A stretch of 64,000 nt of DNA from Candidatus Woesearchaeota archaeon (GCA_047602905.1 JBLKOP010000002.1:79381-143380); one strand, 5' to 3'. Counted from the first letter of the stretch, positions 11,281 to 47,400 are shown. The notes: a model not told the origin generated them from the sequence alone. Numbers and translations are program-made.

Positions 11281-11308
11281 TTAGAAAAATATTATCAAAA
11301 ATATTTTT

Positions 11309-13452: not shown

Positions 13453-13559
13453 GATACTACTAAAAAGTAGTAATTATATTTAAATGTTGTGGATTTCTCA
13501 ATAAATACGAACTGTTCTTAAGAAACTAATGTTAATAAACACCTAAACTAAAAAACTAT

Positions 13560-14183: not shown

Positions 14184-14230
14184 TACTTTTTTTAGTCTAC
14201 AAAGACTTTTTATATGTTAGATTATACGAG

Positions 14231-14713: not shown

Positions 14714-14720
14714 GCGTTGT

Positions 14721-15140
14721 TTACTTATCTATTGGATACCAATAAAAGATGTGTTTCTCGTCAAACGCGAAGTATTCTCTTACGCTTCCTACTTCTTCAA
14801 AACCGTTTTTTTCATAGAACTTACGAGCCCAGGTTGTTTGGCTTCCTGTGTTCACGCTTATTCCTCGCACACCAAGTTCTTGGGCGTGTTCTTTTATTTT
14901 GTTCATGAGTTGTGTTCCTATCCCTTCTCGGCGATACTTTTCTCGTGCGAGTATCCAATTGATGATGAGTCGATCACCACTTTTTTCTAGTATTGTCCAT
15001 CCAGCAAGCTCTTTTTCCTTAAAGCACAAGTACTTTGTGTAGTGGTCGCTTGTGAAGTACTTTATTCCTTCGTCGATTCCTTCTTGTGCGAGGCTTTCGC
15101 GCACTAACTCTAAGTCTTCTGGTTGGTATTTTTTTATCAT
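14721..15140 (-). CDS. GNAT family N-acetyltransferase
   Basis: RREGIGTQLMNKIKEHAQELGV and YEKNGFEEVG motifs A/B. Confidence 0.7.
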   Translation of the reverse strand: MIKKYQPEDLELVRESLAQEGIDEGIKYFTSDHYTKYLCFKEKELAGWTILEKSGDRLIINWILAREKYRREGIGTQLMNKIKEHAQELGVRGISVNTGSQTTWARKFYEKNGFEEVGSVREYFAFDEKHIFYWYPIDK

Positions 15141-15244
15141 GAAACGTTTTTTAGTGAGTTTTTCTGCTGCTTGATTTATTATTGTATCTATAAAAATAAT
15201 TATTTATTGTTATCTTTAAATACTTCACTTTCTATTTTGATATA

Positions 15245-15724
15245 ATGAGCGTAGAATTATTTCATAAAAAGTACTCAGAAGACATATGTGCTTTGTTAAA
15301 GGAATTCTTGGAGTATACTAGAGAAGCATATAGTGTGCAAGTTCTTGAATTTGATAACTATATTGATTCAAAACAAGATACGTATGCTCAAGAACTATTA
15401 AGTTCTTTTGTTGAACTAAAAAAATCAAGATTCTTAATTGCACATCATAATTCAGAAGTAGTTGGATACATTGTTGGTTCTATTGAGAAGAAGCCAAATA
15501 AGGTTATGAAAAAATCTGGTTATATCCATAGTTTTTTTGTTACAAAAAAGTACAGGGGTGCAGGTTTAGGTAAACAGTTATATGATTCGTTAGTTGATTG
15601 GTTTAAGAAACAACGTTGTGATCATCTCGAATTAAGTGTTTTTGATGGTAATCAAAAAACTATTTCTACCTATAAAAAATGGGGTTTTAAAGAGAATGCA
15701 ATAAAAATGAAAAAGAAACTTTAA
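15245..15724 (+). CDS. GNAT family N-acetyltransferase (paralogue of 14231..14713)
   Basis: RGAGLGKQLYDSLVDWFKKQ and YKKWGFKE, the same architecture as the first GNAT. Confidence 0.7.
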   Translation: MSVELFHKKYSEDICALLKEFLEYTREAYSVQVLEFDNYIDSKQDTYAQELLSSFVELKKSRFLIAHHNSEVVGYIVGSIEKKPNKVMKKSGYIHSFFVTKKYRGAGLGKQLYDSLVDWFKKQRCDHLELSVFDGNQKTISTYKKWGFKENAIKMKKKL

Positions 15725-15922
15725 GCCTAAAAAAGTGATTTTTTCTTAGTAGTTTTTAACAGTAATTTCTTTTACAAAACACTACTCTTTGCAAACACAT
15801 ATTTTGTTTTATTGTAAGCTATAAAAATTATCTAATACGATTTTTGTTGGCGTTGCTCCTTGCAGTATGGTGTTGATGTATGGCGTTATTGCTTGTGGCT
15901 TTAATATTGATTTTTTTGCGTC

Positions 15923-16165
15923 TTATTCTTGTTCTGTTTGTTTTGGTAGCCGTCTAAGCATTCTTGTGTCTATTGGTCCGAGTTGTACATCACACATGTG
16001 TATGTTCTTTGTGCTTTTGCTGTTGTGCGATTTGGTAAGGTTGTGTAGTGCTGCAAACACCATACTCATATACGGAGCTGCTGGTAGCCCATTGTCTACG
16101 CTTTGCCCTGATAACGTAAGTATTTTACCACCATCATTAAGTTTGTTCTTAAGTGCTTGTGTTGT
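15923..16165 (-). pseudogene. Remnant of a short-chain dehydrogenase/reductase (C-terminal ~85 codons, no start, catalytic Lys lost)
   Basis: Minus-strand translation ...NDGGKILTLSGQSVDNGLPAAPYMSMVFAALHNLTKS...NIHMCDVQLGPIDTRM matches the SDR GG-I-N-SS / YxxxK / PGxIDT block order. The YxxxK Lys is replaced and no upstream N-terminal half exists. Coordinates are approximate by about 20 nt. Confidence 0.4.
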
Positions 16166-16192
16166 TGCGTATGTGGTTGTTATTAAAACATA

Positions 16193-17092
16193 TTATTGTA
16201 TGAAGTACTCGTTTACTAGTTTTTGTAGGTTGTGTATTACTTCTTTTTCATTAATATCTAGTTGTTTTTGTTTCACGAGTCCTTCTAATAAGTTGCTTTC
16301 CGGAAGAACAAGCAAATTATTTGCAGGTAATTCTTGATGGTATTGGTTGTGTCTGTCTATAAGTACATATCCTTCTGGTTGTTGTTCTCGGTGTTCTTCG
16401 CTAGTGGTTTCTATGGGGGTGAATCTTTCTGTTCTTTCAATAAGGTTTTTGAAGTGTTTTGAAGCAATGATGTCGTTTATTCTTCTTGCTGCAGGAGTGA
16501 TTTCTGAGTAGTAAATGTCTTCAGTTACGCTTCTTAGTTCGCCGTTGTATTGCTCTTGCATGATGTTTTCTAACTTATTTTTTTCTTCTAGTTCGCGTTC
16601 AGAAAGATATGTGTCTGCAAGACTGTTTAGGGAGCCCATGTGGTCTGCTAATTGTTCTTGTACGATATATATTGGTTCTTGTGGTTTTCTTACTTGAAGC
16701 TGATTGAATATATCTGTGTAGAACTGATCTGATTCTTCTTGTATGTCAAAGCGTATTTCTCTCTCTTGCTTATTGTCTGAGGTTAATGCAATGGTGTATG
16801 CTGTTGTTATTATTGAGTCAAGTTCTTCTAATGGTATGTCTCCTTTTGGTTGTCGTTTTATGTCTACTCCATTAATCCATGGTTTGGTTGTGTTGTCTGT
16901 TATGAGTATCTGGTTTTCTAGTTTGCTTCTGTTTTCTTCATACCACTTCGCGATTTCTTCTTTTCCTGTTTCTTTTTTGAATGCGTGTATACTTACAGGG
17001 AGATTGTTTTTTGTAAATTCGTTTTGTATTTCTGGTACGAATCGTTCTAGTAGTTCGTTTGTTCGGTAGATTATGTTGATGTTTTGTTTCAT
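16193..17092 (-). CDS. Hypothetical protein, 299 aa, acidic
   Basis: ORF taken from the internal Met MKQNINIIY, giving an ATGA overlap with the upstream small ORF. No family recognised. Confidence 0.45.
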   Translation of the reverse strand: MKQNINIIYRTNELLERFVPEIQNEFTKNNLPVSIHAFKKETGKEEIAKWYEENRSKLENQILITDNTTKPWINGVDIKRQPKGDIPLEELDSIITTAYTIALTSDNKQEREIRFDIQEESDQFYTDIFNQLQVRKPQEPIYIVQEQLADHMGSLNSLADTYLSERELEEKNKLENIMQEQYNGELRSVTEDIYYSEITPAARRINDIIASKHFKNLIERTERFTPIETTSEEHREQQPEGYVLIDRHNQYHQELPANNLLVLPESNLLEGLVKQKQLDINEKEVIHNLQKLVNEYFIQ

Positions 17093-17286
17093 GTTCTTGT
17101 GTGGTATGTGCTTGTATTTCCTGTTGGTCTTTCTCCTACCCAAGTTATTTTTGGTGGTTGTGTTGGGAATTGACTCATGTATGTTTGTATGTTTGTGTCT
17201 AGTAGGGGGTTTAGTTGGTATTCTTCTTTGATGTCTTTTAGTGCTGTTTGTTTTGCTTGGATAACCAAGGGAGTGTATTTTTTCAT
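17089..17286 (-). CDS. Small hypothetical protein, 65 aa, translationally coupled to the 299-aa ORF
   Basis: Starts right after an AT-rich promoter region. Its stop overlaps the next ATG (ATGA). Confidence 0.35.
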   Translation of the reverse strand: MKKYTPLVIQAKQTALKDIKEEYQLNPLLDTNIQTYMSQFPTQPPKITWVGERPTGNTSTYHTRT

Positions 17287-17374
17287 AACTAATAAGTAGT
17301 TACTAAAATATATAAATCTTTCTCTTAAAAAAATAGAATAATATATAAAATATAATTATTATATCATAAATAAT

Positions 17375-18325
17375 ATGAAATTAGACAAATATTATCGTAA
17401 TATCTTGTTTTCGTTAACAAAAAACGCTCGCATACCTCTTAACGAACTTGCTAAACTAATCAATTTATCTCCTTCAACAACTGCGTACAGAATACAACAA
17501 CTCCAAGAAAATAACCTATTAGAAAACACTTACGCAGTACTTGACCTTTACAAACTCGGCTTTGTAGGATACAGAGCTTACATAACCTTTCAAGCAACCA
17601 CTCCTGATCAAGAAGAAGAAATTCTTTCTTGGCTTCAAAAACAAAAACAAGCAGCTGTTCTGTTAAAAACAACAGGAGACGTTGATTGCGTCTGTATTAG
17701 CTGGACAAAAACAGACCTTGAATACTACTCGTTCGTACAAGAACTCAAAGAACACTACCAAACACACATTAAACACATAGAAATAACCTCTTACATCAAA
17801 GCACATCACTTACAAAGAAACTACTTACTAGACGAAGACGACCAAGAAATACTCACGATAGGAAACACCCGAGAAATAGTAGAACACGACCAACTAGACC
17901 TACAAATACTTCAGCTCCTCGCAACAAACGCTCGTATAAGCGCACTAGAAATAGCACAACAACTAACTATACACGCACAAACAGTAATTAACCGCATAAA
18001 ACGCTTAGAACAAACACAAGTAATAGCAGGATACAGCTGCAGTATTAATACACAACAACTACAGCGAATCTATGAAAAACTCAATTTTGTTTTCTCAAAG
18101 AACACAAACCACCAAGAACTCCTCAGCTACGCAGCAAGCATTCCTGAAAGCATCTACGTTGATGAAGCAACAAACCAATACGACTTAGAGCTAAACATAG
18201 AAGTCTCCTCAACAGCAAGAAAACACGAGATACTAAACGACATAAAAAACCGTTTCGGAGGAGTACATCACTTCAGTCAATTCTCAACAACAGGATTTAG
18301 AAAAATCGTTTATCTACCTGTATAA
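17375..18325 (+). CDS. Tandem Lrp/AsnC-family transcriptional regulator (two HTH plus RAM units in one chain)
   Basis: Two HTH_AsnC-like segments (ILFSLTKNARIPLNELAKLINLSPSTTAYRIQQLQENNLL and ILQLLATNARISALEIAQQLTIHAQTVINRIKRLEQTQVI), each followed by a RAM-like domain. Confidence 0.7.
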   Translation: MKLDKYYRNILFSLTKNARIPLNELAKLINLSPSTTAYRIQQLQENNLLENTYAVLDLYKLGFVGYRAYITFQATTPDQEEEILSWLQKQKQAAVLLKTTGDVDCVCISWTKTDLEYYSFVQELKEHYQTHIKHIEITSYIKAHHLQRNYLLDEDDQEILTIGNTREIVEHDQLDLQILQLLATNARISALEIAQQLTIHAQTVINRIKRLEQTQVIAGYSCSINTQQLQRIYEKLNFVFSKNTNHQELLSYAASIPESIYVDEATNQYDLELNIEVSSTARKHEILNDIKNRFGGVHHFSQFSTTGFRKIVYLPV

Positions 18326-24828: not shown

Positions 24829-26388
24829 ATGGGGAGTATGCTTTCACCTAATAACAAAACCCTCTTTGACATACATCAAGAGCAACTAAGCCGCTTTGGG
24901 TACTCAAACGGCCAGTTCTCCACCTTAGAGGAAGCTATTTCTTCTGCAGATTTAAATAAGCAAGAAGAACAGAAGTTACTTGTTATTAGAGATCGCTTAT
25001 GGAGTGAAAACGCTGCTTCGGGACTCTTCTTTGACCTAAATTTCTTGCGCGCAGCAGAGTTTTATCACGGGAGTACTCGGCTAATGTCTCAGAGACCAGA
25101 AATTGCTCATCCAGCAGGAATGGTATTGCTACTTGACAACATTTTTCTTCAAGCAACCAAACACGCAAAAAGAAAACTAAATAGAAAAGAAATGGTAAGT
25201 AAGCATGCACTCTACGTAGCAACTCCTCCCCATGACATAATAGAAGACATCGCAAAACACGAGACTAATCAACGAGTACTTGATAACAACGAGCTTAACG
25301 AGAACACTATACGAGCGAGTATTCGTCAAAGTAAACTTGGAAAGCTAAGACAGTTTTATGAAGTGTACACACACATAATTAGTAAAGAGTTCTCCCTTTC
25401 TAAAAGCCGCTTAAACGAGGTGTGGAAACCAGTTATTCTTAGTGAAGGACTCGTTACGAGAGGCTCGTATAGCGTAAAATACCAAGCAAATAATTACTTT
25501 ACGTACATGATAGGAATGGACTTGCCTAAACAAATAGCGGGTATGCAAACAACGATACGTGATAACATGAACGCAAACCTTCTTAAAGCAGTTGATTTCT
25601 TAGACAACCTTCCCTCTGAGTTTCCTGATGCAGAGTATTTGCAAAGAAATAATTTACTCACCCAAGAACAACTCAAAAAAGCAGAGAAGTACATGAAAAA
25701 TATTTCTGCAGAGTACTTGTCTGCTGCTCGTAAAGAACTTGAGCAACTAAGTCAAGAAAGTAACGAGAAGTACGTACTAAAAAAACTAGATTTTACTATA
25801 CAAAATAAAGAACTTGTACAAGGTTTTGAAGATGATTTAGAACTAAAAGTTCGTTACGCAAAGAAACGAGCAGTGCATCTTATGTGGTCAGCTGTTCGTA
25901 ACGACCGAGGCTATGATTGGGCAAAACGAATAGCTTCTCTTAGCAAGACTAAACGAAGAAAAATAGGAATTTCTGATATAACATTATCAGCGCTGTATCA
26001 TGCTTCTGTCCAGTTATCAGAGCAAATACGCGAATCAAGCCGCTTAGATATGAATCATCACTTCGTCTACAACCCAATAGCTGCCTCTCAAGCAAAAACT
26101 ATTGAGCAAGAAGTTAAGGAGTACTTACAAACACCTAATAGTAAGCAGTGGGCTGCTAAATCAGAAAACCTTCCTGAACACCTAAGAAAATATGATTCGT
26201 TTAGTAAACTAGCTATTTCTTTAGCTCAAGATGAGAGTAAAAAACTTTCAGACCAGAGCATCTACGAAGTACTTACAGTAGCTAACGGGCTTGCAGAAAG
26301 AAACATCGCTCATAACTCAGTTATTTCCTCAATTGAAGAATACAAAAAACTTTTTTCTATAGACGGAGACATCACAAAAGCTGCTTAG
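24829..26388 (+). CDS. Large hypothetical protein, 519 aa, no TM, mixed alpha/beta
   Basis: Long ORF with ordinary codon usage. No motif recognised. Confidence 0.55.
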   Translation: MGSMLSPNNKTLFDIHQEQLSRFGYSNGQFSTLEEAISSADLNKQEEQKLLVIRDRLWSENAASGLFFDLNFLRAAEFYHGSTRLMSQRPEIAHPAGMVLLLDNIFLQATKHAKRKLNRKEMVSKHALYVATPPHDIIEDIAKHETNQRVLDNNELNENTIRASIRQSKLGKLRQFYEVYTHIISKEFSLSKSRLNEVWKPVILSEGLVTRGSYSVKYQANNYFTYMIGMDLPKQIAGMQTTIRDNMNANLLKAVDFLDNLPSEFPDAEYLQRNNLLTQEQLKKAEKYMKNISAEYLSAARKELEQLSQESNEKYVLKKLDFTIQNKELVQGFEDDLELKVRYAKKRAVHLMWSAVRNDRGYDWAKRIASLSKTKRRKIGISDITLSALYHASVQLSEQIRESSRLDMNHHFVYNPIAASQAKTIEQEVKEYLQTPNSKQWAAKSENLPEHLRKYDSFSKLAISLAQDESKKLSDQSIYEVLTVANGLAERNIAHNSVISSIEEYKKLFSIDGDITKAA

Positions 26389-26846
26389 TGAGGATCACTA
26401 ATTCTTCGTCCTTTACTAATGTATGGCTTAATACTGTTGTTTGCTGCGTGACCACACCCGAGTATTTTATTCTTATATTTGATGAGTACGTAGCGCGCTT
26501 CTACTATGTTTGTTTCTAGTTCTTCTCCTCGCATCCAAGCATTCTTCTCGCTCTCATTTACTTCTACAAAGCAACCTGAGCAGCTCGGCCCAAACAGCAT
26601 TGCTCCATCCATGGTGAGTCGTAGCTCATCACGTATCTTACTGGCTACGTACAGACCTCCTTGGCGTACTCCTAAAGCAACAAAATCTACTTTGTCAATA
26701 TCAGAACTAACAACGTAATACTTATCGTCTCCTCCTAGATAAATTGCGTACTCTGTACTTCCGCTATACCCATACGTTTCTTGTAATTGTCTAAAGAACT
26801 GTTTTCGTTGCTTGCTATTAAGAAAATCCACTCTTATACGCCCCAC
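26385..26846 (-). CDS. Hypothetical protein, tentatively a PUA-like / UPF0113 (Nip7-like) fold
   Basis: ~150-aa ORF with a Cys-containing GPSCSGCFVEV segment. Similarity is weak. Confidence 0.4.
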   Translation of the reverse strand: MGRIRVDFLNSKQRKQFFRQLQETYGYSGSTEYAIYLGGDDKYYVVSSDIDKVDFVALGVRQGGLYVASKIRDELRLTMDGAMLFGPSCSGCFVEVNESEKNAWMRGEELETNIVEARYVLIKYKNKILGCGHAANNSIKPYISKGRRISDPH

Positions 26847-28570
26847 AAAGGATTCTTCTCTCTCATCACTTCAGCAAACGCTTTCAGAACCGCTTTTTGT
26901 TCTGGCTCAAGTAACTTTGCGTGCTCCTTCCACTGCAAGTACTCCTCCTCACTAATAACAGCCCATAACACGTCCTCTTCACATACCTGCCTATTAGCGG
27001 TTGCTCCAGGAATACTAATGGCTACTTGGCTTCCTGTCGTTGCTTCAGCAACGCTTTTCTGCTTTTCTTGAATGTCTTTAACGTACCCAACAACACTGGA
27101 AGGGTCAGTTGCTTGCACAAGCTTGCTTCCTCTCTTCACAACTCCTCTAAGCACCTCTACTCCGCACACTAAAGGGTTACTTGCGCGAAACATGCAGTTA
27201 GCAAGAACGCGCACTTGAGCGGGTAAAGCCATGTGAGCTAATCCTTCACTTTTTTTCTTCTCATCAAGTAAGCGCATGTGCTCTTCGTAACGATCTATAA
27301 GTGCGTAAATAATGTTTTCTTGATACACAACCACTCCTTCAGGAAGCGCTTCTTTAGTTACAGCAAGGTTAAATGCGAGAACAACAGAGAACTCCTCAGG
27401 ATTACTGGCTGCTCGCACCAAGTCTTTTTTACTAATAGGGCCTACGTCAGCTACTCCTATAGGGATGTTCTTTTCGCGAAGCAACATAACAAGGGCTTCA
27501 AGGCTTCCTACGTTATCAGCCTTTAAAACCACTCCTTCAGCGTCCGTATTAATACTTACATGTCTCATTGCTTGAGAGAATTCTTTTGTTAACTCCTCCG
27601 CTTTTCCTGAACCAAACGGCATACCTGCAGTGACTTTTTCTAAGCCAGGAGCACTAATCTTTACTCCTGTAGCAGCCACTGCTTCTTGTACAGGAAGAAA
27701 ACGCGTTTTTTTATCGCGCAAATCACCTGCGTTACTTGGTTGCAGCAAAGCACGCACTTTCGTGCGTATAGGCTCTCCGTGCAACGTACCAATAAGGATT
27801 TCGTCTCCTACGCGCAAAACCCCATCATAAATAATCGCGTTAAGCGTAAGGCCCATTCCTTGCTCCTCAGCAACCTCAAGAACCGTTCCTTTCGCAGGAC
27901 CAGCAACGTTACTATCAAGACTTGCTTCTAAGAAGCGAGAAGCTAAACCAACAAGTAACGTAAGTAACGTATTAATTCCTTCTCCTCCAAGAGCGCTTAT
28001 AGGAACGATAGCCACGGTATTCTTAAAATCACTTACTCGATCAAAGCGCTCGCTATTCAGTCCGTGCTCAGAAAGAACTCCTACAAGCTCATACAGCTTC
28101 TTCTCTAAGTACTCAGTAGTTTTAGGTGTCTGAGCAGATAAGCTCTTAGCAATGTCCTCATCGCGCTTCACATAGCCACTAGCAAGATCCACCTTGTTTG
28201 CAGCAACGACAAACGGTGTTTTGTGATTGCGAAGAATCTGCAGTGCCTCAACGGTTTGCGGCTTAAAACCCTCATTAATATCTACTATGAGTACCGCGAT
28301 GTCAGCAAGGCTTCCTCCTCGCTCACGCATACCCGTAAACGCTGCGTGACCAGGAGTATCTATGAATAACAACCCAGGAATACGCGTGTTCTTCACCACA
28401 GCAGTTGATTTCTTCAAAATAGCGTCTATAGGAACAATACTTGCTCCTATTGCTTGCGTAATAGCTCCTGCCTCTCCAGTAGCGGTTTTTGTTCCGCGAA
28501 TAGTATCCAGAAGAGTCGTTTTTCCATGGTCTACATGGCCTACTACTGCGCAGATGGGAGCTCGAATCAT
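26834..28570 (-). CDS. infB: Translation initiation factor aIF5B (IF2 homologue)
   Basis: G1 [16 protein letters not shown]3 DTPGH, G4 NKVD, beta-barrel domains, aIF5B length. Start at [12 protein letters not shown] rather than the longer ORF. Confidence 0.9.
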
Positions 28571-28729
28571 ATACTCACGAAAAAACTCGTGATTTAAGAG
28601 GGTATCGTTCAGAAAACAGTAGGTGTATACGAAAACGTGCTGTAAATAACAAAATCGTTTCGTATCAGCAAAAAGCTTTTTCGCTTCCACAGGCTAAACA
28701 CCCTTTAAAACGCGTACAAGAAGAAGCGT

Positions 28730-29635
28730 ATGATTGATGAAACCATCACTAACCGGCTTCGCAACGGACAAGAAATCAGCGATAAGCAATTAGAGGAGCG
28801 AGTAGATCGCTACCGCGACCAGAAGAAATCCTCGCAAGCAAAAGAGCTGGACTTAGCAGCTGTGAAGAAAGAACAAGAACAAGCAACCAAAGAAGCATAC
28901 ACAAGCAGCCTTAGTGGCATTGAGAAACTCCTTGTTGGAACAAAAGAATTCTTTGGCTTTGGTATACAACGAGAACTCAATAAGCACTACACAGCAGTTT
29001 CAAGAAGAATTACTTCTTTTGAAGCAAAAGTAGATCATTTTGAAGACCTTTTTGAGCAAACAACCCAGAAATACAAAGGTGCTTTAGATGAGAAAAGACA
29101 GTTTGAGCAATACCAAGCAGCTTCTAAAGAACTGTATCTGCGCTCATTAGATAAGCGAGACGCTTTAGAAGTGGAACTAGAGTCTCTTACTTCACAAACA
29201 AGCCCTTCTAGCATGGCGTTGCATGAGAAGCGTGACGAGCTCTTTGAAGTAAGTAAACGAGTAGACACGCTGTATCAAGAGACTGGCGAGATAGTTATGA
29301 AGCTGCAAATGGCGCACCAAAAAGAATTTGCGTACGAAGCAAACCTAAAAAGTATTCGTAAGAACAGAAGCAGAATTCTTAATCAACTATCCACTGCAAC
29401 TGTCTTCTTAGATGAGCTCTCACTAGCACAAGAGATGCACGGCTCTGGGTCTACAAAAGGAATTATTGATAGTTACGAAAACCTCGCTATTACGATACAA
29501 CAAGCAAGACGGTTTCTTGACGCAACAAATAATTCTGCTCAGAAAGAAATTAACGAGAAGTTTACTGTTGAGTACAACACACCTGTAGGTCTGCACAAAG
29601 CAGTTGAGGAATGGAGCAAGATTCCTCGGCCGTAA
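28730..29635 (+). CDS. Coiled-coil hypothetical protein, 301 aa, overlapping the following Vps4-like ATPase gene
   Basis: Continuous heptad-rich helices with no TM. The C-terminus ends KIPRP. 25-nt overlap with the next gene. Confidence 0.55.
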   Translation: MIDETITNRLRNGQEISDKQLEERVDRYRDQKKSSQAKELDLAAVKKEQEQATKEAYTSSLSGIEKLLVGTKEFFGFGIQRELNKHYTAVSRRITSFEAKVDHFEDLFEQTTQKYKGALDEKRQFEQYQAASKELYLRSLDKRDALEVELESLTSQTSPSSMALHEKRDELFEVSKRVDTLYQETGEIVMKLQMAHQKEFAYEANLKSIRKNRSRILNQLSTATVFLDELSLAQEMHGSGSTKGIIDSYENLAITIQQARRFLDATNNSAQKEINEKFTVEYNTPVGLHKAVEEWSKIPRP

Positions 29636-30804
29636 TCAGCGAGGTTGATTTGCGTGTAGCGCAGAAGAAAGCTCAGCGAACCTTGCAGGTTCACGAGCTA
29701 GAAAACCCTCTTCTTGAGAGTTTGCTTACGTATTACGAAGCGGCTGTGAGTAACGCAGTTCCTCCTCTTGCTGCTCTTGAAGCAAGTAGTGGGGTTTTGC
29801 GTAACGGGTACACTCCAAGAAGCGGTTCTTCAACAAGCCTTGATGCGTTCTTGTTAGAAGTAGATGATTCAGTTGCTGGAGAAGCGATTGCTGGGTTGTA
29901 TGAGCGTGTTAAAGAACAGAACGCTTCTGCTATTCCTGTTGATTTCGCTGGTCGCTTGTATGAGCGAACTCCTCTTGTAAGAACGCTTCCTTCTCTTATT
30001 GGTGTTGAGAGCGCTACCCAGAAGTTGCGAGAAGCGGTGAATCGCTTGTTCTTATACAACCCGTTAACAAGAACGCATTTTGAGCGTGAAAAAGACGAGG
30101 CAGGTGTTCTTCTGCACGGACCTCCAGGAACAGGCAAGTCTAGTTTGTGTGAGTACGCATACGTGCACGCACAAAACCTCTCTCAAAAGAGCGGCTTACC
30201 TTTTACTCTTGAAGTATTTGAGTCTCACGAGTATAGTATGTGGCAGGGGGAGAGTGAGAAGGCGCTTCAAAAAAAGTTTGCTTCCTTAACTAACCCTCAA
30301 GGAGTGGGTCTTCTTGTTCTTGAAGAAGTGGATATGTTGTTTGCTTCCCGAGAAGATAGCGGAGCAGGTGTCGGTGTAAAAACGACAAATACGCTTATGC
30401 AAAACCTAAGTGGCTTTAGTGCTTCTCGCTACAGTAACTTCTTAGTTATTGGTACAAGTAACTTACCACACAAGATTGATCATGGTATGAAGCGACGCCT
30501 CCCTACTCGCGTGCACGTTCCTCTCTACGATTCTCTTAGTCAGTACCGCTTACTTAGTGAGCATGTGCTGAGCTGGCCTTCTTCTGAAGTTCATGAGTAC
30601 TTGGCGAGTACGGGGTTTACGAATCGTTTATCTGCTTCTGAGATGACGAGCATGTGTAATTTTGTTCATAGTGTTCGTTGCGGTCCTGTTGACGAAAGCA
30701 TTTTTTCTCTTCCTCTTCATCAAAGAGAAGCTGCTCGCAGAGCGCAGTACAAAGATTTGTCTTTACAAGAAGTGCAGAGTGCTTTGCGCTCTTACGAATT
30801 TTGA
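29611..30804 (+). CDS. AAA+ ATPase of the Vps4/katanin 'meiotic clade' (CdvC-like)
   Basis: Walker A LLHGPPGTGKSSL, the clade-specific SMWQGESEKALQKKF (cf. SKWMGESEKLVKQLF in Vps4), Walker B LVLEEVD, and sensor/Arg fingers NLPHKIDHGMKRRLPTRVHVPL. Preceded by a 150-aa N-terminal domain. Confidence 0.75.
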   Translation: MEQDSSAVISEVDLRVAQKKAQRTLQVHELENPLLESLLTYYEAAVSNAVPPLAALEASSGVLRNGYTPRSGSSTSLDAFLLEVDDSVAGEAIAGLYERVKEQNASAIPVDFAGRLYERTPLVRTLPSLIGVESATQKLREAVNRLFLYNPLTRTHFEREKDEAGVLLHGPPGTGKSSLCEYAYVHAQNLSQKSGLPFTLEVFESHEYSMWQGESEKALQKKFASLTNPQGVGLLVLEEVDMLFASREDSGAGVGVKTTNTLMQNLSGFSASRYSNFLVIGTSNLPHKIDHGMKRRLPTRVHVPLYDSLSQYRLLSEHVLSWPSSEVHEYLASTGFTNRLSASEMTSMCNFVHSVRCGPVDESIFSLPLHQREAARRAQYKDLSLQEVQSALRSYEF

Positions 30805-38827: not shown

Positions 38828-40045
38828 TTATGCTGGTACTACAAACACTGGAGGTCTGTTTACTGCTTGTACAGTAATTAGTACTTCTTTAGTGGTTGTT
38901 AATACTCTGTCACTTGCTTCTATTTCAACGACGTACTCGCCTGCTTCGCCGAAATCAACGTATCGTGTGCTTGTATTCATCCATCCACTGTACCGAACTA
39001 CTACTTCGTCTCCGTCTGGGTCACTTATCGTTACCCAGTTCTTGAGATCAAAGTGCTCTCCTTCGTTAATGACGATTTCGTCTTCAACGATGATGACTGG
39101 TGGTCGGTTGCGTATAGCTAGCTCGACGGTGACTTCTTGGCTTACTTCATCAATTCCGTCACTTGCGGTGACTGTGATGACGTATTCTCCTGCGTCTCCT
39201 ACTCTGCTCTGCCAGATTCCGTCAGTACCTACTGGTTCTGTGTACGTAATCGTTACTTCGCTTCCGTCTGGGTCTGTTGCGTTTGCTCGTAGATTAATTC
39301 TGTCTCCTTCCACTGCTTGTATACTTGTTTGTGCAAGTTCTAGCACTGGTGGTCGGTTAACGTTTTCTACAATGACTGTTACGTCTTTGAACACTTCGTT
39401 TCCTGCTGTGTCTTCAGCAATGATGCGTACGTTGTATTCTCCTGCGTCATCATAGGTTGTTCTGTACGTTGCGCTACTCATCCATCCGCTGTAGCTGACG
39501 ATGATGTCATCTCCTTCTGGGTCTGTGATGTTGTAGATGTTTAAGTCAACTACTTCTCCTTCTCGTACCTCAATAACTTCTGGTCCTCGGATGCTTGGAG
39601 GAAGGTTTAGTGCGTCTACTACTACAAGTATTGTTATGCTTGTGTTCTCGATTCCGTCACTTGCTATTATGCGTACGTCATATTCTCCTGCGTCTCCAAT
39701 ATCTGTTTGCCAGGTTCCTTCTGTACTAAATGGTTCTCCAAAGTATAGTGTTACTTCGTCTCCGTCTGGATCAACTGCTCGAGTGTTTAGTTGTATGAAG
39801 TCTCCTTCTACTCCTCGTACGGTTGCTGCGTATTCGTTGTTCTCAACTGGTTCTACAATCTCCTCTCCATTTACTGGTGTTTCTGGGCTGTAGTCTGTTT
39901 CGTTGAACGTAGCTGTCTCGTTCTCGCCTACAGGTACAGTCGGGGTACATGCTGCGAGTACGAAGAGGATAGCTAGTCCAAACAGTATTGCTTGTTTGTT
40001 CATTGGTAGTTCCCCATAAGAGTTTCCACTTGTGAATAGATACAA
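38828..40045 (-). CDS. Secreted or lipid-anchored surface protein with four ~95-aa Ig-like tandem repeats (DPDGD motif)
   Basis: Signal peptide plus a lipobox-like LAAC. Repeats end ...DPDGDEV..YSGW / TDPEGDDIIVSYSGW / ATDPDGSEVTITYTEP / SDPDGDEVVVRYSGW, reminiscent of cadherin/PKD-like adhesin repeats. Confidence 0.6.
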   Translation of the reverse strand: MYLFTSGNSYGELPMNKQAILFGLAILFVLAACTPTVPVGENETATFNETDYSPETPVNGEEIVEPVENNEYAATVRGVEGDFIQLNTRAVDPDGDEVTLYFGEPFSTEGTWQTDIGDAGEYDVRIIASDGIENTSITILVVVDALNLPPSIRGPEVIEVREGEVVDLNIYNITDPEGDDIIVSYSGWMSSATYRTTYDDAGEYNVRIIAEDTAGNEVFKDVTVIVENVNRPPVLELAQTSIQAVEGDRINLRANATDPDGSEVTITYTEPVGTDGIWQSRVGDAGEYVITVTASDGIDEVSQEVTVELAIRNRPPVIIVEDEIVINEGEHFDLKNWVTISDPDGDEVVVRYSGWMNTSTRYVDFGEAGEYVVEIEASDRVLTTTKEVLITVQAVNRPPVFVVPA

Positions 40046-40069: not shown

Positions 40070-41188
40070 TCAGAACGCGTCTTTTATGCGCTCAAAGAAG
40101 CTTTTCTGTGGTGTGGTACTTTCTCCGCGTAGATTAGTGTAGTTTTTAAGCGCTTCTTTTTGCTCTTTACTAAGTTTCTTAGGTGTTTCTAAAATTACTT
40201 TTACGTGCAGGTCTCCTTTTCCTCCTCGTATAGTGGGCATTCCGTATCCTCGTAGACGAAAGGTTGTGTGGCTTTGTGTTCCTGCAGGTATTTCTAGTGT
40301 TGCGCTTCCTTGCAAGGTAGGTATTTTTACGTCGTCTCCGAGTGCTGCTTGTGAGAAGCTAATGGGTACTTGTGCGTGTAAGGTACTTGCTTCTCGTGTG
40401 AAGAACTCGTGTTGTTTTATGCGCACAACGATGTATAAGTCTCCTGGTGGTGTTCCTGCTTCTCCTGCTTCTCCTTCTCCTGCTACACGAATGGTTTGTC
40501 CGTTCTCTACTCCTGCTGGGATGTCTATAGTAAGCGTTTTTTTCTTCTTTACGCGTCCTTCTCCTTGACAAGCACTACACGTCTCTTTTGGTATACTTCC
40601 TCTTCCTTTACAGCTTGGACACGTCGTTTGTGTTCTAAACGCTCCAAATGGTGTTTGTTGTTGCTGTATTACTTGTCCTTGCCCGTTACAGGTACTGCAA
40701 GTACGTACTTCTTGGTTTTTTGCTCCTGTCCCTTTACAGGTACTGCACGCGTCGTACTTGTTTACCTCTATTGTTCTTTCTGTGCCTGTATATGCTTCTT
40801 TTAGCGTAATCGTTGCTTGTGTTTGTAAATCTGCTCCTCGTCTAGATTGCTGTCTTCCTCCTCTAAAGCCTCCTCCAAAGAACTCGCTAAAAATGTCTTC
40901 AAAACCTCCAAATCCACTGGTATCAAAGCCGCTAAACCCTCCTTGTCCTCCTCCTGTTTTCTTGTTTTGCGTGTACGCTTCATGACCAAACTGGTCGTAC
41001 TGCGCTCGTGATTGCTCGTTACTAAGTATTTTATAGGCCTCGTTTACTTTTTTGAATTGCTCCTCTGCTTCTGGATTGTCTTTGTTAAGGTCTGGGTGGT
41101 ATTTTTTTGCTTTTTTCTTATACGCTTTTTTTATTTCTTCCTGACTAGCGTTTTTGGTAATTCCTAATGTTTGGTAATGGTCACTCAT
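40070..41188 (-). CDS. dnaJ: Chaperone DnaJ (Hsp40)
   Basis: J domain with HPD, a G/F region, and four CxxCxGxG zinc-finger repeats. Confidence 0.9.
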
Positions 41189-41261
41189 GGTAGCTTGCTA
41201 TTCTGTGTTGTTTTATAACTCTTCGTAAGAAGAATAGAAAAAAATATTTTGTTTGTAGAGA

Positions 41262-43100
41262 CTATTTTTTCTTTTCCTCCTCTACGTTTTCATCTTTTAC
41301 TTTTGCGTCAACAACTTCTTCTTCGTCTTTCTTGTTTTCTTGTTCTGCTGCTTGTGCTTGTTGTTGCTTAGCGACTTCTTCATAGAGTTTCTGAGAGACT
41401 GCTGCGAATTGTTCTTGCAGTTCTTCTTTCTTCTTCTTTATTGCTTCTACGTCTTTCTCATCAGCCTTGAGTAGTTCTTTGAGTTCATCAGCAAGTTTCT
41501 GAATTCCTTCTAGTTCTTTCTTGTCTGCTTTCTCCTCTAAGTCTTTTATTGTCTTTTCTGTTTGGTAGACGAGGCTGTCCGCTTCGTTAACTACTTCTAT
41601 TTCTTCTAGGCGTTCTTTGTCTTTCTCAGCGTTTTTCTCTGCTTCTTCTTGCATCTTCTTAATTTCTTCATCAGATAGGTTTGTGCTGCTAGTTATTTTG
41701 ATGCTTTGCTCTTTTCCTGTTCCTAAATCCTTTGCTGCTACGTTTACTATTCCGTTTGCGTCGATATCAAAGGTTACTTCTATCTGTGGTATTCCTCTTG
41801 CTGCTGGAGGTATTCCTAGTAAGTCAAAGTGCCCTAGTGTTTGGTTGTCTGCAGCCATTGCTCGCTCTCCTTGCAGTACGTGTATGCTTACTGCTGTTTG
41901 GTTGTCACTTGCTGTGCTAAAGACCTTGCTTTCTTTTGTTGGTATTGTCGTGTTTTTTTCTATGAGTTTCGTGAACACTCCTCCAAGGGTTTCAATACCT
42001 AGACTTAGTGGTGTTACGTCTAGCAAGAGTACGTCTTTTACGTCTCCTCCAAGAATTCCTGCTTGTATTGCTGCTCCCATAGCGATTGCTTCATCCGGAT
42101 TTACGCTTTTGTCTCCGTCTTTTCCTGTGAGGTCTTTGACGAGTTTCTGTACTGCTGGTATTCTGCTGCTTCCTCCTACGAAGATGATCTTGTCAGGTGT
42201 TACTTTTGCGTCTTTGATTGCTTGCTGAGTGGGTTTTTTTAGTCGCTCAAGGATGTCGTCGATGAGTTTTTCAAACTCACTTCTGCTTATCTCTGCTGTT
42301 AGGTGTTTTGGTCCACTCTCTGTTGCTGTTATAAACGGCAGGTTAATGCTTGCTGTTTGTTTGCTTGAGAGCTCTATCTTTGCTTTCTCTGCTGCTTCTT
42401 TGAGTCGTTGCAGTGCTTGTTTGTCTTCTCGCAAGTCTACTTTGTGTTCTTTTTTGAACTCTTCTGCTAGGTGGTTGAGGAGTATTTCGTCTACGTCATC
42501 TCCTCCTAGGTGGTTGTCTCCGCTGGTTGCTTTTACTTCAAAGACTCCGTCTCCGAGTTCTAGTATGCTTACATCAAAGGTTCCTCCTCCAAAGTCAAAG
42601 ACTAAGATGGTGTTTTCATCTTCTTTGTCCAGTCCGTACGCGAGTGCTGCTGCTGTTGGTTCGTTTATGATTCGTAGTACTTCTAGGCCAGCAATTTTTC
42701 CTGCGTCTTTAGTTGCTTGTCTTTGTGCGTCGGTAAAGTATGCTGGTACGGTGATGACTGCTTGTTTGACTTCTCCTCCTAGGTAGTCTTCTGCGTCTTT
42801 TTTGAGTTTTCCAAGTATTATCGCACTGATTTCTTGTGGCGTGTATTCTTTGTCGTGAATACTTACTTTGTAGTCTTCTCCCATGTGTCGTTTGATGCTG
42901 CGTACGGTTTGGTCTGGGTTGAGTACTGCTTGGTTTCTTGCTGCGTCTCCTACTATTCGTTCACCGTCTTTTTTTACTGCTACGACGCTTGGCGTTGTTC
43001 TCTTTCCTTCTGCGTTGCTAATAATGGTTGGTTTTCCTCCTTCCATTGCTGCTACTGCGCTAAATGTTGTTCCTAAGTCTATTCCTATTATCTTACTCAT
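41262..43100 (-). CDS. dnaK: Chaperone DnaK (Hsp70)
   Basis: [21 protein letters not shown], full Hsp70 length, and a Lys/Glu-rich C-terminus. Confidence 0.95.
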
Positions 43101-43566
43101 GTTCTTTTTTCTCCTGTGGTCCTTTGCTGACCTTTACTTTTGTTGTTCGCAGGACTTTTCCTGCGAGTTCATATCCTGGTTGTAGGATTTGTAGTATTGT
43201 TCCTTCTTTTTGCTTGCTGTGTTCGCTCAGTAGTGCTTCGTGTTTGTGTGCATCAAAGCCTTCTTCTGTGCTTATTCGTTGTACTCCGTGTGATTCTAGT
43301 ACTGTGATGAGTTGGCCTAGTACGAGTTCTACTCCTTGGTATAGGCTGTCTTCTTTGTTCTTTGCTTGGTTGATTGCAAGTTCTAGGTTGTCGATTACTG
43401 CGAGTATTTCTGTGATGAGTTGTTTGTTTGCTAATTTTTTGTTTTCTTCTGCTTGTATTTCTGTTCTTCGTCGATAGTTTGCGTAGTCCGCACTTATGCG
43501 TGCGAGCTGTTCTTCTAGCTCTTGCACGCGTTCTTGTGCGGTTTCTAATTCTTGTTTTTTGCTCAT
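43093..43566 (-). CDS. grpE: Nucleotide exchange factor GrpE
   Basis: Coiled-coil N-terminus and the GrpE C-terminal beta domain. Start at [11 protein letters not shown]. The upstream basic extension in the ORF track is not coding. Confidence 0.85.
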
Positions 43567-43693
43567 GCTTGTGCGTACCCTTGCATGAATCCTTCTTCCC
43601 AGTCTTCTATTTGGTCGTGGTCCATGAGGGTTTCTGTGTCTTTGTAGATGTTTTCGATGTAGTCTATTTCTTTCTCGTATGTGTATTCTGTGT

Positions 43694-43945
43694 TCATTGC
43701 TCATTCCTCCATGGCATCACCATTCGTAGTTTGTTGTCTTGGTAGGTGATGATTGTGAGTTCTGTGTTGATTGCTCGTGGTAGGGGTATTTTTTGTTGTG
43801 CTTGGTGTTTTCCTGCTTGTAGGGTGAGTGTTATTTCGTGTTCTTGCACGTCTGCTTGTATTGTTTGTATTTCTGGTAGTGTTGCTTGTGCGAGTAGTGC
43901 TTTTGGTGTTTGTATGAGGTGTATTTGGTTTTCCATACGAATCAA
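43694..43945 (-). CDS. Small Hsp20/alpha-crystallin-like protein (possibly truncated) heading the heat-shock operon
   Basis: ...EHEITLTLQAGKHQAQQKIPLPRAINTELTIITYQDNKLRMVMP resembles the sHsp C-terminal block (R.i.LP..vd...i.A.y.nGvL.i..PK). Confidence 0.35.
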   Translation of the reverse strand: MIRMENQIHLIQTPKALLAQATLPEIQTIQADVQEHEITLTLQAGKHQAQQKIPLPRAINTELTIITYQDNKLRMVMPWRNEQ

Positions 43946-44465: not shown

Positions 44466-47400
44466 ATGAGAGCTTGGGCGGCAATAATACTTCTTTTCTT
44501 ACTTATCCCACTAGCAACAGCAAACATACCCCAAGAACTCAAAGACCTGCCCTTCGCAGAAGAAATAGCAAAAATAGCGCTACCAGAACAAGCAAGAGCA
44601 CAACCAATGATGATGCGCTCAATGAGCTTTGAAGAACCAGAACCAGTAATTGTTCAGTTTCATAAACCAGAAGATATTGAAGCGATTCAAAGTCTTGTTC
44701 AATCGCTAAATACTGAAGAATATGAGAGTCTTTCAAAAACGATACGTGAATTCGCAAAGTATAATACAGATGTAAAGCATGATTATGCTATTATTGACGG
44801 TTTTTCAGTATCACTAACAACTCAACAACGTTTGGAGCTTGAACAAAACCCGCTCATAAAAAGTATACATTCTTCACGGGAGGTTCGTGTTTTTATGCAA
44901 GATACGCTACCACTTATACAAGCAGATGAAGTTCATAAAATTAGTATAGATGAAACTTTTGTACAAGGAAAGGGACAAACTATTTGTGTTCTTGATACAG
45001 GAATTGATTATACGCATCCAGACTTTGGAGCTTGTAGTCAAGAAGAGTTTCTTGCAGGGGAGTGTAAGAAAGTTCCTGGAGGACATAATATAGTGACCAA
45101 CCATTCTGATGGAATGGATGATCATGGTCACGGAACTCATGTTGCAGGAATAGTGGCTGCAAATGGTTCAATAATTGGAGTTGCTCCTCAAGCAAACTTA
45201 ATTGCCATGAAAGTACTTAATCATTTAGGTTCAGGGTCTGAAGAAGATATTATTGAAGGAATTAATTGGTGCATCTCTAATGCTGAACAATTCAATATAT
45301 CTGTTATAAGTATGAGCTCAGGCGGAGGAAACTATTCAGAAATTTGTGATGTAGTTGATGATCCTTTTAGAAATGCAGTAGCTGCTGCTTGGGATAAAGA
45401 AATAGCTGTTTTTGCTGCTTCAGGAAATTACGCAACAGCAGAGTATATTAGTTTTCCTGCATGCATAAGTAACGTAATTCCAGTTACTTCCTCAACAAAA
45501 AATGATGAGATGAGCAGTTTTAGTAGTAGAAATTCTCTTGTAGATATTATTGCCCCGGGATCAGAAATTAATTCTACTGTAATTGGAGGAAGTTATGATT
45601 CTTATTCAGGAACTTCTATGGCTACTCCTCATGTCGCTGGTGCTTTTGCTCTTCTTAACCAATACAAAGAAATCACAGGAATCTCTGCTTCTTCTCAAGA
45701 CCTTGTTGATGCATTAATTAGTACTGCTGTTCTTATTCATGATTCTGCTAGTGATCGTAACTATTCTCGTATTGATGTGTTCGCTGCGCTTTCTTCTTTT
45801 GACGTTACTGCCCCAACAACAGTAGCAATTTTTCCTGTTGGTTGGCAGAATACTAATGTTACAGTAACGTTTAACGCGTCTGATGATTCTGAGGTTGCGT
45901 ACACTACTGTTCGTGTGAATGAGGAGGCACCAATTAATGCAACTAATATTACGCTTAGTGAAGAGGGTAATCACACTGTTGAGTTCTTCTCTGTTGATGT
46001 GTTTGATAATACAGAAGCTAACCAAACCATCTATGTGCTTATTGATAAGACGCCTCCTATTACTTCTTTTCCTCTTAGTAACGTTACGTGGTATCAGAAC
46101 GTAACAAACATTTCTTTTAATGTCACTGATGCGCTATCAGGAATTAATTATACGAATTATTCACTAAACCAAGAGGCGTTTATTTCTTCGCCAACAATAA
46201 CTATTGAGGAAGAAGGCGTTTATAACCTCTCGTTCTTCTCTGTTGATATCGCTGGTAACATGGAGAACGTAACCAACCAGACTGTTCGTGTAGACGTGAC
46301 TCCTCCAGAACTTAATATTACTACTACTCTTTCTTGGCTGTCTGCTCCTAACTTCACTCTTATCATAAACGCTACTGATGTTCTTTCTGGGATTAATAGA
46401 AATCTTATTAACCAAACTCAACAAACAAATCTTACTATTTCTCAAGAAGGGAACACGACTGTTTTTGTGCAAGTGTTTGATAACGCGAACAATTCTGTTT
46501 CTCAAAACGTCTCTGTTCTTCTTGACACAACAGCTCCTGCTACGAGCGCTAATTACTCCTCTGGTTGGCAAAGCACTAACGTAACTGTTGTTCTCAACGC
46601 TACTGATGCGCTATCAGGAATAAATCACACTACTATTTACGTAAATGAGGAAGCGCCGATTAACGCAACGAACATTACGCTTTCTGAGGAGGGCAATCAT
46701 ACTGTTGAGTTCTTCTCGGTTGATAACGCTGGTAATAAAGAAGCTAACCAAACAATTACTGTGCTTATTGATAAAACTCCTCCTGCACTAAACATAACCA
46801 CAACTGCTTCTTGGTTGTCTGCAGATAATTTTACTCTTGTCGTGAACGCTACTGATGCTCTTTCTGGAGTTAACCGAACACTCATCAACAGCTCAGAAGC
46901 AATGAACTTAACTGTTTTTGAGGAAGGGAATACGACTGTTTTTGTGCAAGTGTTTGATAACGCGAATAATTCTGTTTCTCAAAACGTTTCTGTTCTTCTC
47001 GACCGTACCTCGCCAATCACAGAAGCACTGTATAACGAGGGCTGGAATACTGAAAACGTAACTATTCTTTTTAACGCAACTGATATTCTTTCTGGTGTAA
47101 ATTACACTACTGCTCGTATTAACGAAGAAGCACCGGTTAATGTAACTAACGTTACGTTAAGTGAGGACGGTAATTACACAATAGAGTTCTTCTCGGTTGA
47201 TAATGCTAATAACAAGGAGGATAACCAAACCATTACTGTACTTATTGATCAGACTCCGCCAAACATTTCTTTTTTCACGATTAATGACTCAAGTCCGCAG
47301 ATAAACACTTCAATATCTTTGCAAGCAAACGTTACTGATACGAACTTAGAAAACGTTACGTTAACAATACATAATCAGTTAGTTGCGCTTACAAATACTA

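Follow-up and report, generated by a model that had tools for sequence, protein, structure and literature searches.

ESCRT-III and Vps4, of the endosomal sorting complexes required for transport (ESCRT), are reported from every major archaeal lineage except DPANN (PMC7619361; PMC8970359), and thus a true or analogous system in a DPANN genome would matter. Such a system was proposed, in an earlier note on the sequence, for two overlapping genes in a 64,000-nucleotide stretch from a Candidatus Woesearchaeota archaeon (GCA_047602905.1 JBLKOP010000002.1:79381-143380; the whole stretch is hereafter called the window). One gene encodes a coiled-coil protein (CC) and the other a AAA ATPase. Are the two an ESCRT-like (CdvB/CdvC-like) pair, or do they belong to a different kind of system? 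The reading preferred here, to which a probability of about one half is assigned, is that they form a lineage-specific, two-gene module of Woesearchaeota, consisting of a AAA+ unfoldase/translocase and its dedicated coiled-coil substrate or adaptor. Coordinates are window positions, and features lie on the plus strand unless stated otherwise.

The two genes are a conserved unit

CC (301 aa) is encoded at 28730-29635 and the ATPase (397 aa) at 29611-30804, as the earlier note had described them. The overlap of 25 nt (29611-29635) brings together the CC stop region and the ATPase start, the ATG of which lies within the CC codons GAA-TGG. The open reading frame (ORF), Pfam, NCBIfam and homologues mark the ATPase as a single-ring classical AAA protein of a Woesearchaeota-specific family. 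Both proteins are identical to NCBI entries of a 'Candidatus Woesearchaeota archaeon' metagenome-assembled genome, where CC is entered as 'hypothetical protein ACMXYD_01830, Candidatus Woesearchaeota'. Since both have homologues, neither is a chance ORF.

If the adjacency were peculiar to this genome, the CC gene would not be conserved beside the ATPase gene in relatives, a weakness that the earlier note had itself anticipated. Instead, the two are strictly found together: in 13 of 13 loci, the ATPase gene is directly preceded by a helical gene on the same strand, of ~300-350 aa where it is complete in the contig. The pair overlaps, by 4-62 nt, in ten of these loci: by 25 nt in the window, L001, L003 and L085, by 28 nt in L002 and L004, by 23 nt in L088, by 8 nt in L090, and by 4 and 62 nt in the loci of P0158 and P0145, respectively. 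In the remaining three, 6-45 nt separate the genes (6 nt in L087, 12 nt in L086, and 45 nt in L089). Most loci share the arrangement aIF5B, pair, DNA ligase. The neighbourhood differs at the P0145 locus (NOG1, Mrr, guanylate cyclase), at L086 (glycoside hydrolase, YkuD) and at L090 (hydrogenase subunits, thymidylate kinase). The pair is therefore conserved, and usually overlapping, even where its neighbourhood has changed, and CC and the ATPase are a conserved functional unit.

The 25 nt overlap implies that the genes are co-transcribed, and they are probably also translationally coupled. A TTTAAAA sequence, read as an archaeal TATA-like box, is present at 28704-28710, ~23 nt before the CC ATG, and may serve as promoter for a leaderless transcript of both genes. 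A Shine-Dalgarno sequence for the ATPase start was considered and rejected, as the candidate GAGG is only 1 nt away from the ATG.

The ATPase family and its distribution

A word-indexed search with the ATPase returned only four full-length relatives, whereas an exhaustive HMMER search of 1.84 billion representatives delimited a family of ~24 core clusters. A hidden Markov model (HMM) of the family N-terminal domain recovers those alone. The HMMER search added P0122-P0128 (394-403 aa). It also added, beside the subclade A of the window ATPase, a second subclade, B, of 392-420 aa (P0144, P0146, P0147, P0151, P0154, P0158, and P0162; P0143 is partial, at 314 aa), and distant relatives of 450-620 aa with other N-terminal regions (P0160, P0167, P0171, P0186, P0213, P0235, P0253, and P0265). 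Of the members that carry a source name, all are 'Candidatus Woesearchaeota' apart from the distant P0266, which is entered as Nitrospiraceae, and the clusters that were looked up hold one or two sequences each. As far as the databases searched show, the pair is restricted to a small part of the Woesearchaeota.

Pattern scans of nucleotide collections added no members. A metagenome scan with subclade-B patterns gave 600 pattern matches and zero confirmed members, and the degenerate DNA pattern for GPPGTGK[ST][ST]L..[YH]A found 40 loci with no family member among them. A genome-collection scan with a generic Walker A pattern gave ordinary AAA genes only among the matches listed, and is uninformative on distribution.

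Some of the distant relatives P0160, P0213, P0235 and P0265 have a charged, coiled-coil-like C-terminal extension (e.g. ...EELEEKVRELREENERLKKKKK) together with a different N-terminal region of ~220-290 aa. In a gene-fusion (Rosetta-stone) test, the partner HMM and the family N-domain HMM detected nothing in these four proteins or in the others examined.

The ATPase has the motifs of a classical AAA protein and an atypical Walker B

The ATPase scores 67 bits against Pfam AAA PF00004 (cutoff 21.2), all 20 family members match this model, and the match is to the generic AAA domain only. Its Walker A, sensor-1 Asn, Arg finger and threading pore loop 1 are likewise those of a classical AAA protein. 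Walker A (GPPGTGKS, aa 170-177; 30118-30141) has G170, G173, G175, K176 and L179 invariant in the 20 members; elsewhere G213, D241, N284, R296 and Y42 of the N-terminal domain are invariant across the same set. The pore loop 1 region, SMWQGESEKALQKKF (aa 209-223; 30235-30279), has an aromatic-x-Gly in all members, the aromatic residue being W or Y in all 20. The window ATPase has MWQG, within SMWQGES (aa 209-215), and the variants in the family are KW.G, MW.G, MY.G and SYFG. Sensor-1 (GTSN, aa 281-284) and the second region of homology (SRH), KRRLPTRVHVPL, span 30451-30501 and include the invariant N284 and R296. The SRH has Arg295-Arg296 within KRRL (aa 294-297) and no GRFD insert. Subclade B, which has an SSYFG pore loop, carries a single Arg in the SRH, with S or N at position 295. 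After the lid domain, the segment FSLPLHQREAARR (30703-30741) is specific to subclade A, and is also found in the distant P0145 and P0167.

Of the motifs in the earlier note, Walker A, the SRH Arg pair and SMWQGESEKALQKKF are all present, whereas Walker B is not canonical. This motif (LLVLEEVD, aa 234-241; 30310-30333) has E238-E239 in place of D-E, followed by the invariant D241, and thus departs from the hhhhDE pattern. The core family never has DE, which occurs solely in the distant P0266. The window protein and P0002 have EE, most of subclade A and the distant relatives have DD, and subclade B has ED. With such a Walker B, the ATPase may hydrolyse ATP slowly or act as a switch.

The region before the AAA domain, which the earlier note took to be a 150-aa domain of MIT-like size, is instead ~128 aa long and is modelled as three short helices (aa 11-60), a low-confidence linker of ~45 aa, and a beta-hairpin. 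The N-terminal helical domain (aa ~7-60; 29629-29790) is family-specific, with helices at 11-27, 33-47 and 52-60 and the invariant Tyr42; its Ala55-Leu56-Glu57 is invariant in subclade A only. A variable linker (aa 61-105) and a conserved G-x-x-Y-x-R beta-hairpin (aa ~110-119) follow at 29791-29994, as judged from the model and the alignment. The predicted local distance difference test score (pLDDT) of the linker is 35-48, and Y117 of the hairpin is nearly invariant.

An alignment-based AlphaFold2 (AF2) model of the ATPase (mean pLDDT 65.5) has the three short helices (17, 15, and 9 residues), a disordered stretch at aa 61-105, the beta-hairpin at 110-118, a normal AAA large and small domain, and two additional C-terminal helices (369-378 and 385-393). 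Foldseek comparison of the model with the Protein Data Bank (PDB) returned Rix7, spastin, Vps4, p97, FIGNL1, katanin, Msp1 and ATAD1, all near E = 1e-11. The modelled fold is that of a classical-clade threading AAA protein, and no one subfamily stands out. A working translocase is plausible from these features. A transmembrane scan found no segment in the ATPase, in CC, or in a neighbouring protein of 519 aa.

The coiled-coil partner, a possible new family with a conserved tail

CC is predicted to be almost wholly helical (18-154, 161-237, 242-281, and 285-295) in a single-sequence AF2 model (pLDDT 71). Between a charged N-terminal region and a long hairpin is a KE-hydrophobic-hydrophobic-G-x-G motif (KEFFGFG, aa 72-78; 28943-28963), which comes from the alignment and has low model confidence; its counterparts in other partners are KELFTGG, KEFIGFT, REVIGDS, AEAIVGRG and EFLGRG. 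The predicted antiparallel helical hairpin has arms at aa ~87-154 and 161-237 (28988-29440; pLDDT 85-95 over aa ~100-210), joined by the turn SQTSPSS (aa 155-161). A third helix (aa 242-281; 29453-29572) carries the sequence S-[IV]-x-x-[LM]-Y-E, which also aligns, not significantly, in the L090 partner. The last segment is a flexible C-terminal tail (29558-29632; pLDDT <60) with an [FY]-x-[VIL] motif and Trp295. Q219 in the hairpin, Y249 in the third helix, and W295 are invariant in the nine aligned sequences (the Trp in 9/9).

The earlier note described CC as all coiled coil with a KIPRP tail. The protein is predicted to be helical and does end in EEWSKIPRP, but the prolines are not conserved, one relative ending in ...WKQLSESR. 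Trp295 could be thought a by-product of the overlapping ATG. However, this was rejected, as L086, L087 and L088 also have the Trp, and in these loci the codon for it is not part of an overlap. Conservation of the tail motif [FY]x[VIL]...W is therefore genuine, and the tail is a candidate docking or engagement peptide for the ATPase.

Neither Pfam nor NCBIfam assigns CC to a family, returning coiled-coil noise such as tropomyosin and SMC, and word-indexed database searches with CC and with the partner alignment found only the query itself. The partners are collinear proteins of 296-325 aa, with identities of 15-24% within subclade A and 10-24% over the nine aligned sequences. With an HMM built from four subclade-A partners, those of L088 and L086 in subclade B are found at 1.2e-5 and 2.8e-5, respectively, and nothing further among 3472 decoy ORFs. 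With Foldseek, the matches to CC are SMC arms, AhlC, dynein stalk, PcsB, BAR domains and EnvC, all above E = 1e-3. The suggestion in the earlier note that the partner is possibly a new family is thus borne out, CC having no relative outside the lineage that these sequence searches detect.

A proposed mechanism

On the preferred reading, the ATPase would be a single-ring AAA+ translocase whose N-terminal helical domain, private to the family, is tethered by a long flexible linker, and CC would be a long antiparallel hairpin with a third helix and a flexible tail bearing [FY]x[VIL] and the invariant Trp. The ATPase would form a hexamer that docks on CC, most likely by contact of its N-terminal domain with the tail, and its aromatic pore loops would then pull on CC by threading. 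Such pulling might take apart or remodel assemblies of coiled-coil protein, or act in this way on clients that the coiled coil holds. The logic would resemble that of Vps4 acting on ESCRT-III or of katanin in polymer disassembly, and would be ESCRT-like in logic only.

Several points weigh against this reading. The catalytic Glu of a canonical Walker B is absent in most family members, which have DD or ED. The CC model was built from one sequence, and how its helices pack against each other is uncertain. The closer relatives also share a longer stretch of gene order (aIF5B, pair, DNA ligase), and thus some of the co-occurrence reflects common descent and not separate maintenance of the pair. 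The partner HMM misses the 330-aa partner at L090, the most distant relative, and the hhalign score of that protein is marginal (19.9, with a shuffled maximum of 16.6). Finally, physical interaction, polymerisation and threading are all steps that we infer from sequence.

At L090 itself (5602-9809; P0186, GCA_016928155.1, a distant woesearchaeote), the helical gene and the ATPase gene are part of four overlapping or tightly packed same-strand genes. The flanking two encode a protein of 134 aa with a hydrophobic N-terminal stretch and one of 470 aa that matches TPR faintly and likewise has a hydrophobic stretch. The hydrophobic stretches were read by eye and are under the threshold of the transmembrane scan. 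These flanking proteins hint at membrane association in the wider family.

The ATPase lies close to both Vps4 and Cdc48

Two kinds of comparison of the AAA domain rank Vps4 first. In hmmsearch with the family AAA-domain profile, the top non-family domain is P0053 (99 bits), a Vps4-like protein with a weak MIT and Vps4_C; MIT-bearing Vps4 proteins score 76-86 bits, Cdc48-D2 at most 74, and FtsH at most 69. Profile-profile scores for the AAA domain with hhalign are 207 for Vps4, 205 for Vps4_C-only proteins, 197 for Cdc48-D2, 177 for D1, 158 for TRIP13, and 152 for FtsH. By this marginal score difference, the comparisons support a domain closest to the Vps4 type, and then to Cdc48-D2. A neighbour-joining tree of 80 domains (192 columns, 200 bootstraps) recovers the family as a single clade at 100% but gives it no well-supported position: its link to TRIP13 has 52%, and it is not placed inside Vps4. 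A PDB profile search with the SRH-lid region is dominated by two-domain p97 entries and does not discriminate clades.

The Vps4 affinity in the earlier note therefore survives as a marginally best score, whereas membership of the meiotic clade is not established by the tree. Likewise, SMW.GESE had been read as a meiotic-clade hallmark, and we take it to be as near to Cdc48-D2 as to Vps4, so that it is no hallmark by itself. Most family members have an SKW.GES pore loop and an RR[LF]xx[RK] SRH without GRFD, which is presumably the Vps4/Msp1 form.

The grouping with TRIP13 is probably due to long-branch attraction and was rejected, because both hhalign and hmmsearch put TRIP13 under Vps4 and Cdc48. 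Additionally, the family has neither PF23563 nor PF23242, both of which real TRIP13 proteins match, the hhalign probability for its N-terminal domain against TRIP13_N is 0.1%, and the partner is not a HORMA protein.

The near-equality of Vps4 and Cdc48 bears on the first alternative, in which the ATPase is a Cdc48- or PAN-like unfoldase of protein quality control, possibly feeding a proteasome, with CC as a cofactor or adaptor and not the substrate. Cdc48-D2, Rix7 and Afg2 are nearly as similar to the ATPase as Vps4 is, AAA unfoldases often use dedicated adaptors, and the C-termini of subclade A have a conserved Tyr near the end (...SYEF, ...HYSF, ...SYSL) that could recall proteasome docking through an HbYX motif. 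This last idea was rejected, as the Tyr, at -3 in the window protein, is in the wrong register (Y-x-hydrophobic) and is not conserved across the family, being absent from subclade B. The ATPase has one AAA domain and no tandem D1-D2, its N-terminal domain matches that of Cdc48 with an hhalign probability of 0.2%, and it has no PAN coiled-coil/OB N-domain. The NCBIfam scores are also far below cutoff, at 47.9 bits for TIGR01243 (CDC48; cutoff 802.65) and 26-33 bits for the PAN models (cutoffs 500-750). The ATPase does not group with PAN, one of the groupings that, according to the earlier note, would have refuted its reading. Moreover, core proteostasis genes seldom diverge at the rate seen for the pair, which far exceeds that of housekeeping genes. 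A quality-control role is, on balance, unlikely, if not strongly so.

Tests for ESCRT-III and Vps4

Archaeal Vps4 has been defined by a MIT domain or by ESCRT neighbours (Makarova 2024), and the window pair was compared on both counts. In Pfam searches at E<=1, the window ATPase (P0001) matched neither the MIT family PF04212 nor Vps4_C (PF09336), and the 25 families found most often in the 20 members do not include MIT. A profile of the ATPase N-terminal domain aligned with a MIT alignment of 13 Vps4-like proteins by hhalign at a probability of 0.2%, and, over TRIP13_N, Cdc48_N and MIT, these probabilities were 0.1-0.2%, indicating no relationship. The NCBIfam CdvC model (NF041006) scores 46.4 bits, with a cutoff of 650. 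There are no ESCRT-II-like or winged-helix (wH) genes among the neighbours of the window pair.

Similarly, nine partner sequences gave no match to Snf7 (PF03357) or PspA_IM30 (PF04012) at E<=10, and NCBIfam gave no Snf7, CdvB or PspA signal. A PDB profile search with the partner returned generic coiled coils only, and the Foldseek top 50 for CC contained no ESCRT-III, PspA or Vipp1. Against PspA (Escherichia coli and Pseudarthrobacter), the hhalign probability was 0.4%, within the shuffled range, whereas a PspA-PspA positive control gave 97.7%. Net charge, taken in blocks of 30 residues, shows no consistent ESCRT-III polarity (basic N-terminus, acidic C-terminus) in five full-length partners, each of which is net acidic.

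The ESCRT-like identity proposed in the earlier note thus finds no MIT, Vps4_C, Snf7, CdvB or PspA signal and no charge polarity, and positive sequence-based support for homology comes down to the gene arrangement and the marginal score ranking. Two versions of the idea can still be weighed. In the first, the pair would do the work of ESCRT-III/Vps4 in DPANN, either as an analogue specific to these archaea or as a homologue too diverged to be recognised: CC would form a filament or lattice, possibly at a membrane, and would be disassembled by the ATPase recruited via the Trp tail. This we regard as unlikely.

In the second, the genes would encode an extremely diverged but true ESCRT-III/Vps4 (CdvB/CdvC) pair, with CC as a membrane-binding polymer of the ESCRT-III superfamily and the ATPase as its Vps4, and would close the gap reported for DPANN. 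The SKW.GES pore loop and the RR[LF]xx[RK] SRH without GRFD of most members, presumably the Vps4 form, the best scores of Vps4-type domains (P0053 at 99 bits; hhalign 207, with 197 for Cdc48-D2), and a modelled CC that has a long hairpin followed by shorter helices and a tail would all fit. A partner immediately upstream is the usual archaeal ESCRT-III/Vps4 gene order, and the Halo_adaptin-type systems, taken up below, provide a precedent (Makarova 2024). However, none of the signals sought above, from MIT and Vps4_C to Snf7, PspA, charge polarity, and wH or ESCRT-II-like neighbours, was found, and the tree does not put the family inside Vps4. Such a pair is rather improbable.

The pair evolves rapidly

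In the same genomes, identity to the window proteins is 51-69% for aIF5B, the ligase and XPD, 30-40% for the ATPase, and 18-28% for CC (local alignments). Both genes therefore evolve fast together, beside slow housekeeping genes, which hints that the pair faces a variable counterpart, for example a host, a virus, or the cell envelope.

A related observation concerns the 519-aa protein encoded upstream (24829-26388). It has no Pfam or NCBIfam match and occupies the same position in subclade-A relatives (517-532 aa). It is 23-29% identical to these, compared with 60-64% for the flanking aIF5B and ligase, and is thus another fast-evolving, lineage-specific gene. In subclade-B loci, its place is taken by two genes without an assigned family (473+/526 aa and 407/411 aa).

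Such rates would fit a conflict or host-interaction module, whether for antiviral defence or for remodelling the interface of an episymbiont with its host, in which the pair would sense foreign or host proteins or act on them. CC, the ATPase and the 519-aa protein all evolve far faster than their neighbours, there are weak AAA matches to the defence ATPases IetA/IteA and TRIP13, and the family is confined to a DPANN lineage, the Woesearchaeota, thought to live as episymbionts (review). However, the PADLOC matches are generic AAA matches of at most 42 bits (IetA, TRIP13), and the partners and the 519-aa neighbour match nothing there. The pair has a fixed site between aIF5B and DNA ligase in most genomes and not a variable island, there are no nuclease, protease or HORMA partners, and TRIP13 ranks below Vps4 and Cdc48 in hhalign. 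Such a role is therefore quite improbable.

That CC and the ATPase are functionally unrelated and their overlap incidental, as conservation of much of the surrounding synteny and the commonness of short overlaps in compact DPANN genomes might suggest, is very improbable, given that the pair stays together in three loci with a changed neighbourhood, that both genes share unusual divergence rates, and that the partner occurs nowhere else in the databases searched.

Surroundings of the pair and other features of the window

The genes around the pair encode a HAD hydrolase, a PUA protein, the 519-aa protein, a PUA-like protein, aIF5B, DNA ligase, a nitroreductase, and an XPD helicase. The aIF5B gene is divergent from the pair and that of the ATP-dependent DNA ligase is convergent with it. 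As listed, the aIF5B ORF (26834-28690, minus strand) begins at a GTG and has ~40 surplus N-terminal residues, the homologues being 577-580 aa. Its conserved part starts at residue 41, near nt 28570, and the true start is therefore probably near 28570, which would make the divergent intergenic region ~160 nt and not 39 nt. The 3' ends of the ATPase and DNA ligase genes overlap by 13 nt (30792-30804), so that an intrinsic terminator does not fit between the two genes. A convergent overlap of 12-55 nt recurs in L001-L003, L086-L089 and the P0158 locus.

The earlier note had placed SepF, and with it FtsZ-based division, in the window. SepF is absent from the 40 ORFs scanned (Pfam, E<=1e-3), a set that leaves out the 1368-aa ORF at 44466-48572 and ~20 others, and no FtsZ was seen in the same 40 ORFs.

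A bacterial-type chaperone cluster of GrpE, DnaK (Hsp70) and DnaJ is present at 40070-43704 (minus strand) in this archaeal DPANN genome, and beside it (38828-40045) is the gene of a 405-aa protein with cadherin-, PKD- and Ig-like domains. Three GNAT acetyltransferase genes are adjacent to each other at 14231-14713 (plus strand), 14721-15140 (minus strand), and 15245-15724 (plus strand). The ORFs at 7656-8567, 8564-9487 and 9728-10474 have no Pfam match. The G+C content of the region 8000-18000 is 0.31-0.37, compared with 0.40-0.46 over most of the remainder, and this region may be a foreign or lineage-specific island.

Significance

If the pair does remodel assemblies in an ESCRT-like manner, it would be a remodelling machine for the one archaeal superphylum reported to be without ESCRT. 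A DPANN-specific analogue might serve membrane remodelling, the formation of vesicles or nanotubes, or attachment to host cells, and for membrane and cell-contact remodelling in very small, often episymbiotic cells, the pair, a conserved operon for two soluble proteins, is a concrete and testable candidate. Even if unrelated to ESCRT, it represents a well-delimited branch of classical AAA proteins with a private N-terminal domain and an obligatory coiled-coil partner, and its EE, DD and ED forms of Walker B bear on how far the rule of the catalytic Glu is dispensable.

Comparison with known systems

Among known systems, TRIP13/Pch2 resembles the ATPase in the 52% bootstrap join of the tree. 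We also take the two to share the GPPGTGK[ST]SLC setting of the P-loop and an insertion that follows the helix of Walker A. In contrast, the family lacks TRIP13_N and the TRIP13 lid, and TRIP13 has the lower hhalign rank.

The D2 domain of Cdc48/p97/VAT, together with Rix7 and Afg2, is nearly as similar to the ATPase in sequence and fold as Vps4 is, and the SMW.GESE pore loop of the window ATPase would itself fit the D2 form. The ATPase differs in having one AAA domain and not two, no Cdc48 N-domain, and an SRH without a GRFD-type insert.

With Vps4/CdvC and ESCRT-III, the pair has in common a single-ring classical AAA protein, an SRH Arg pair without GRFD, a K-W-x-G-E-S pore loop in most of the family, and an upstream partner gene for a helical protein with a predicted hairpin and flexible C-terminal tail. 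The ATPase differs from Vps4/CdvC in having no MIT, no Vps4_C, and the EE, DD or ED Walker B. CC differs from ESCRT-III in being longer, at ~300 aa with an N-terminal extension of ~85 aa, and in being net acidic without polarity.

Halo_adaptin-type systems consist of a MIT-less Vps4-like ATPase and an upstream, weakly PspA-like gene (Makarova 2024). The window pair is alike in that an ATPase with no recognisable MIT is preceded by a hard-to-classify helical protein. However, Halo_adaptin ATPases have a VAT-N-like domain and their loci encode wH and adaptin-like proteins, none of which was seen for the window pair.

Finally, katanin p60/p80, spastin, fidgetin and Msp1/ATAD1 are structural neighbours of the modelled ATPase, although the latter has no MIT, transmembrane anchor or microtubule-binding domain and its partner is unrelated to theirs. 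The SRH form RR[LM]P.R is presumably common to the ATPase family and the katanin/spastin/fidgetin/Msp1 group. The logic that these systems would have in common with the window pair is that of a AAA ring pulling on the tail of a partner or polymer.

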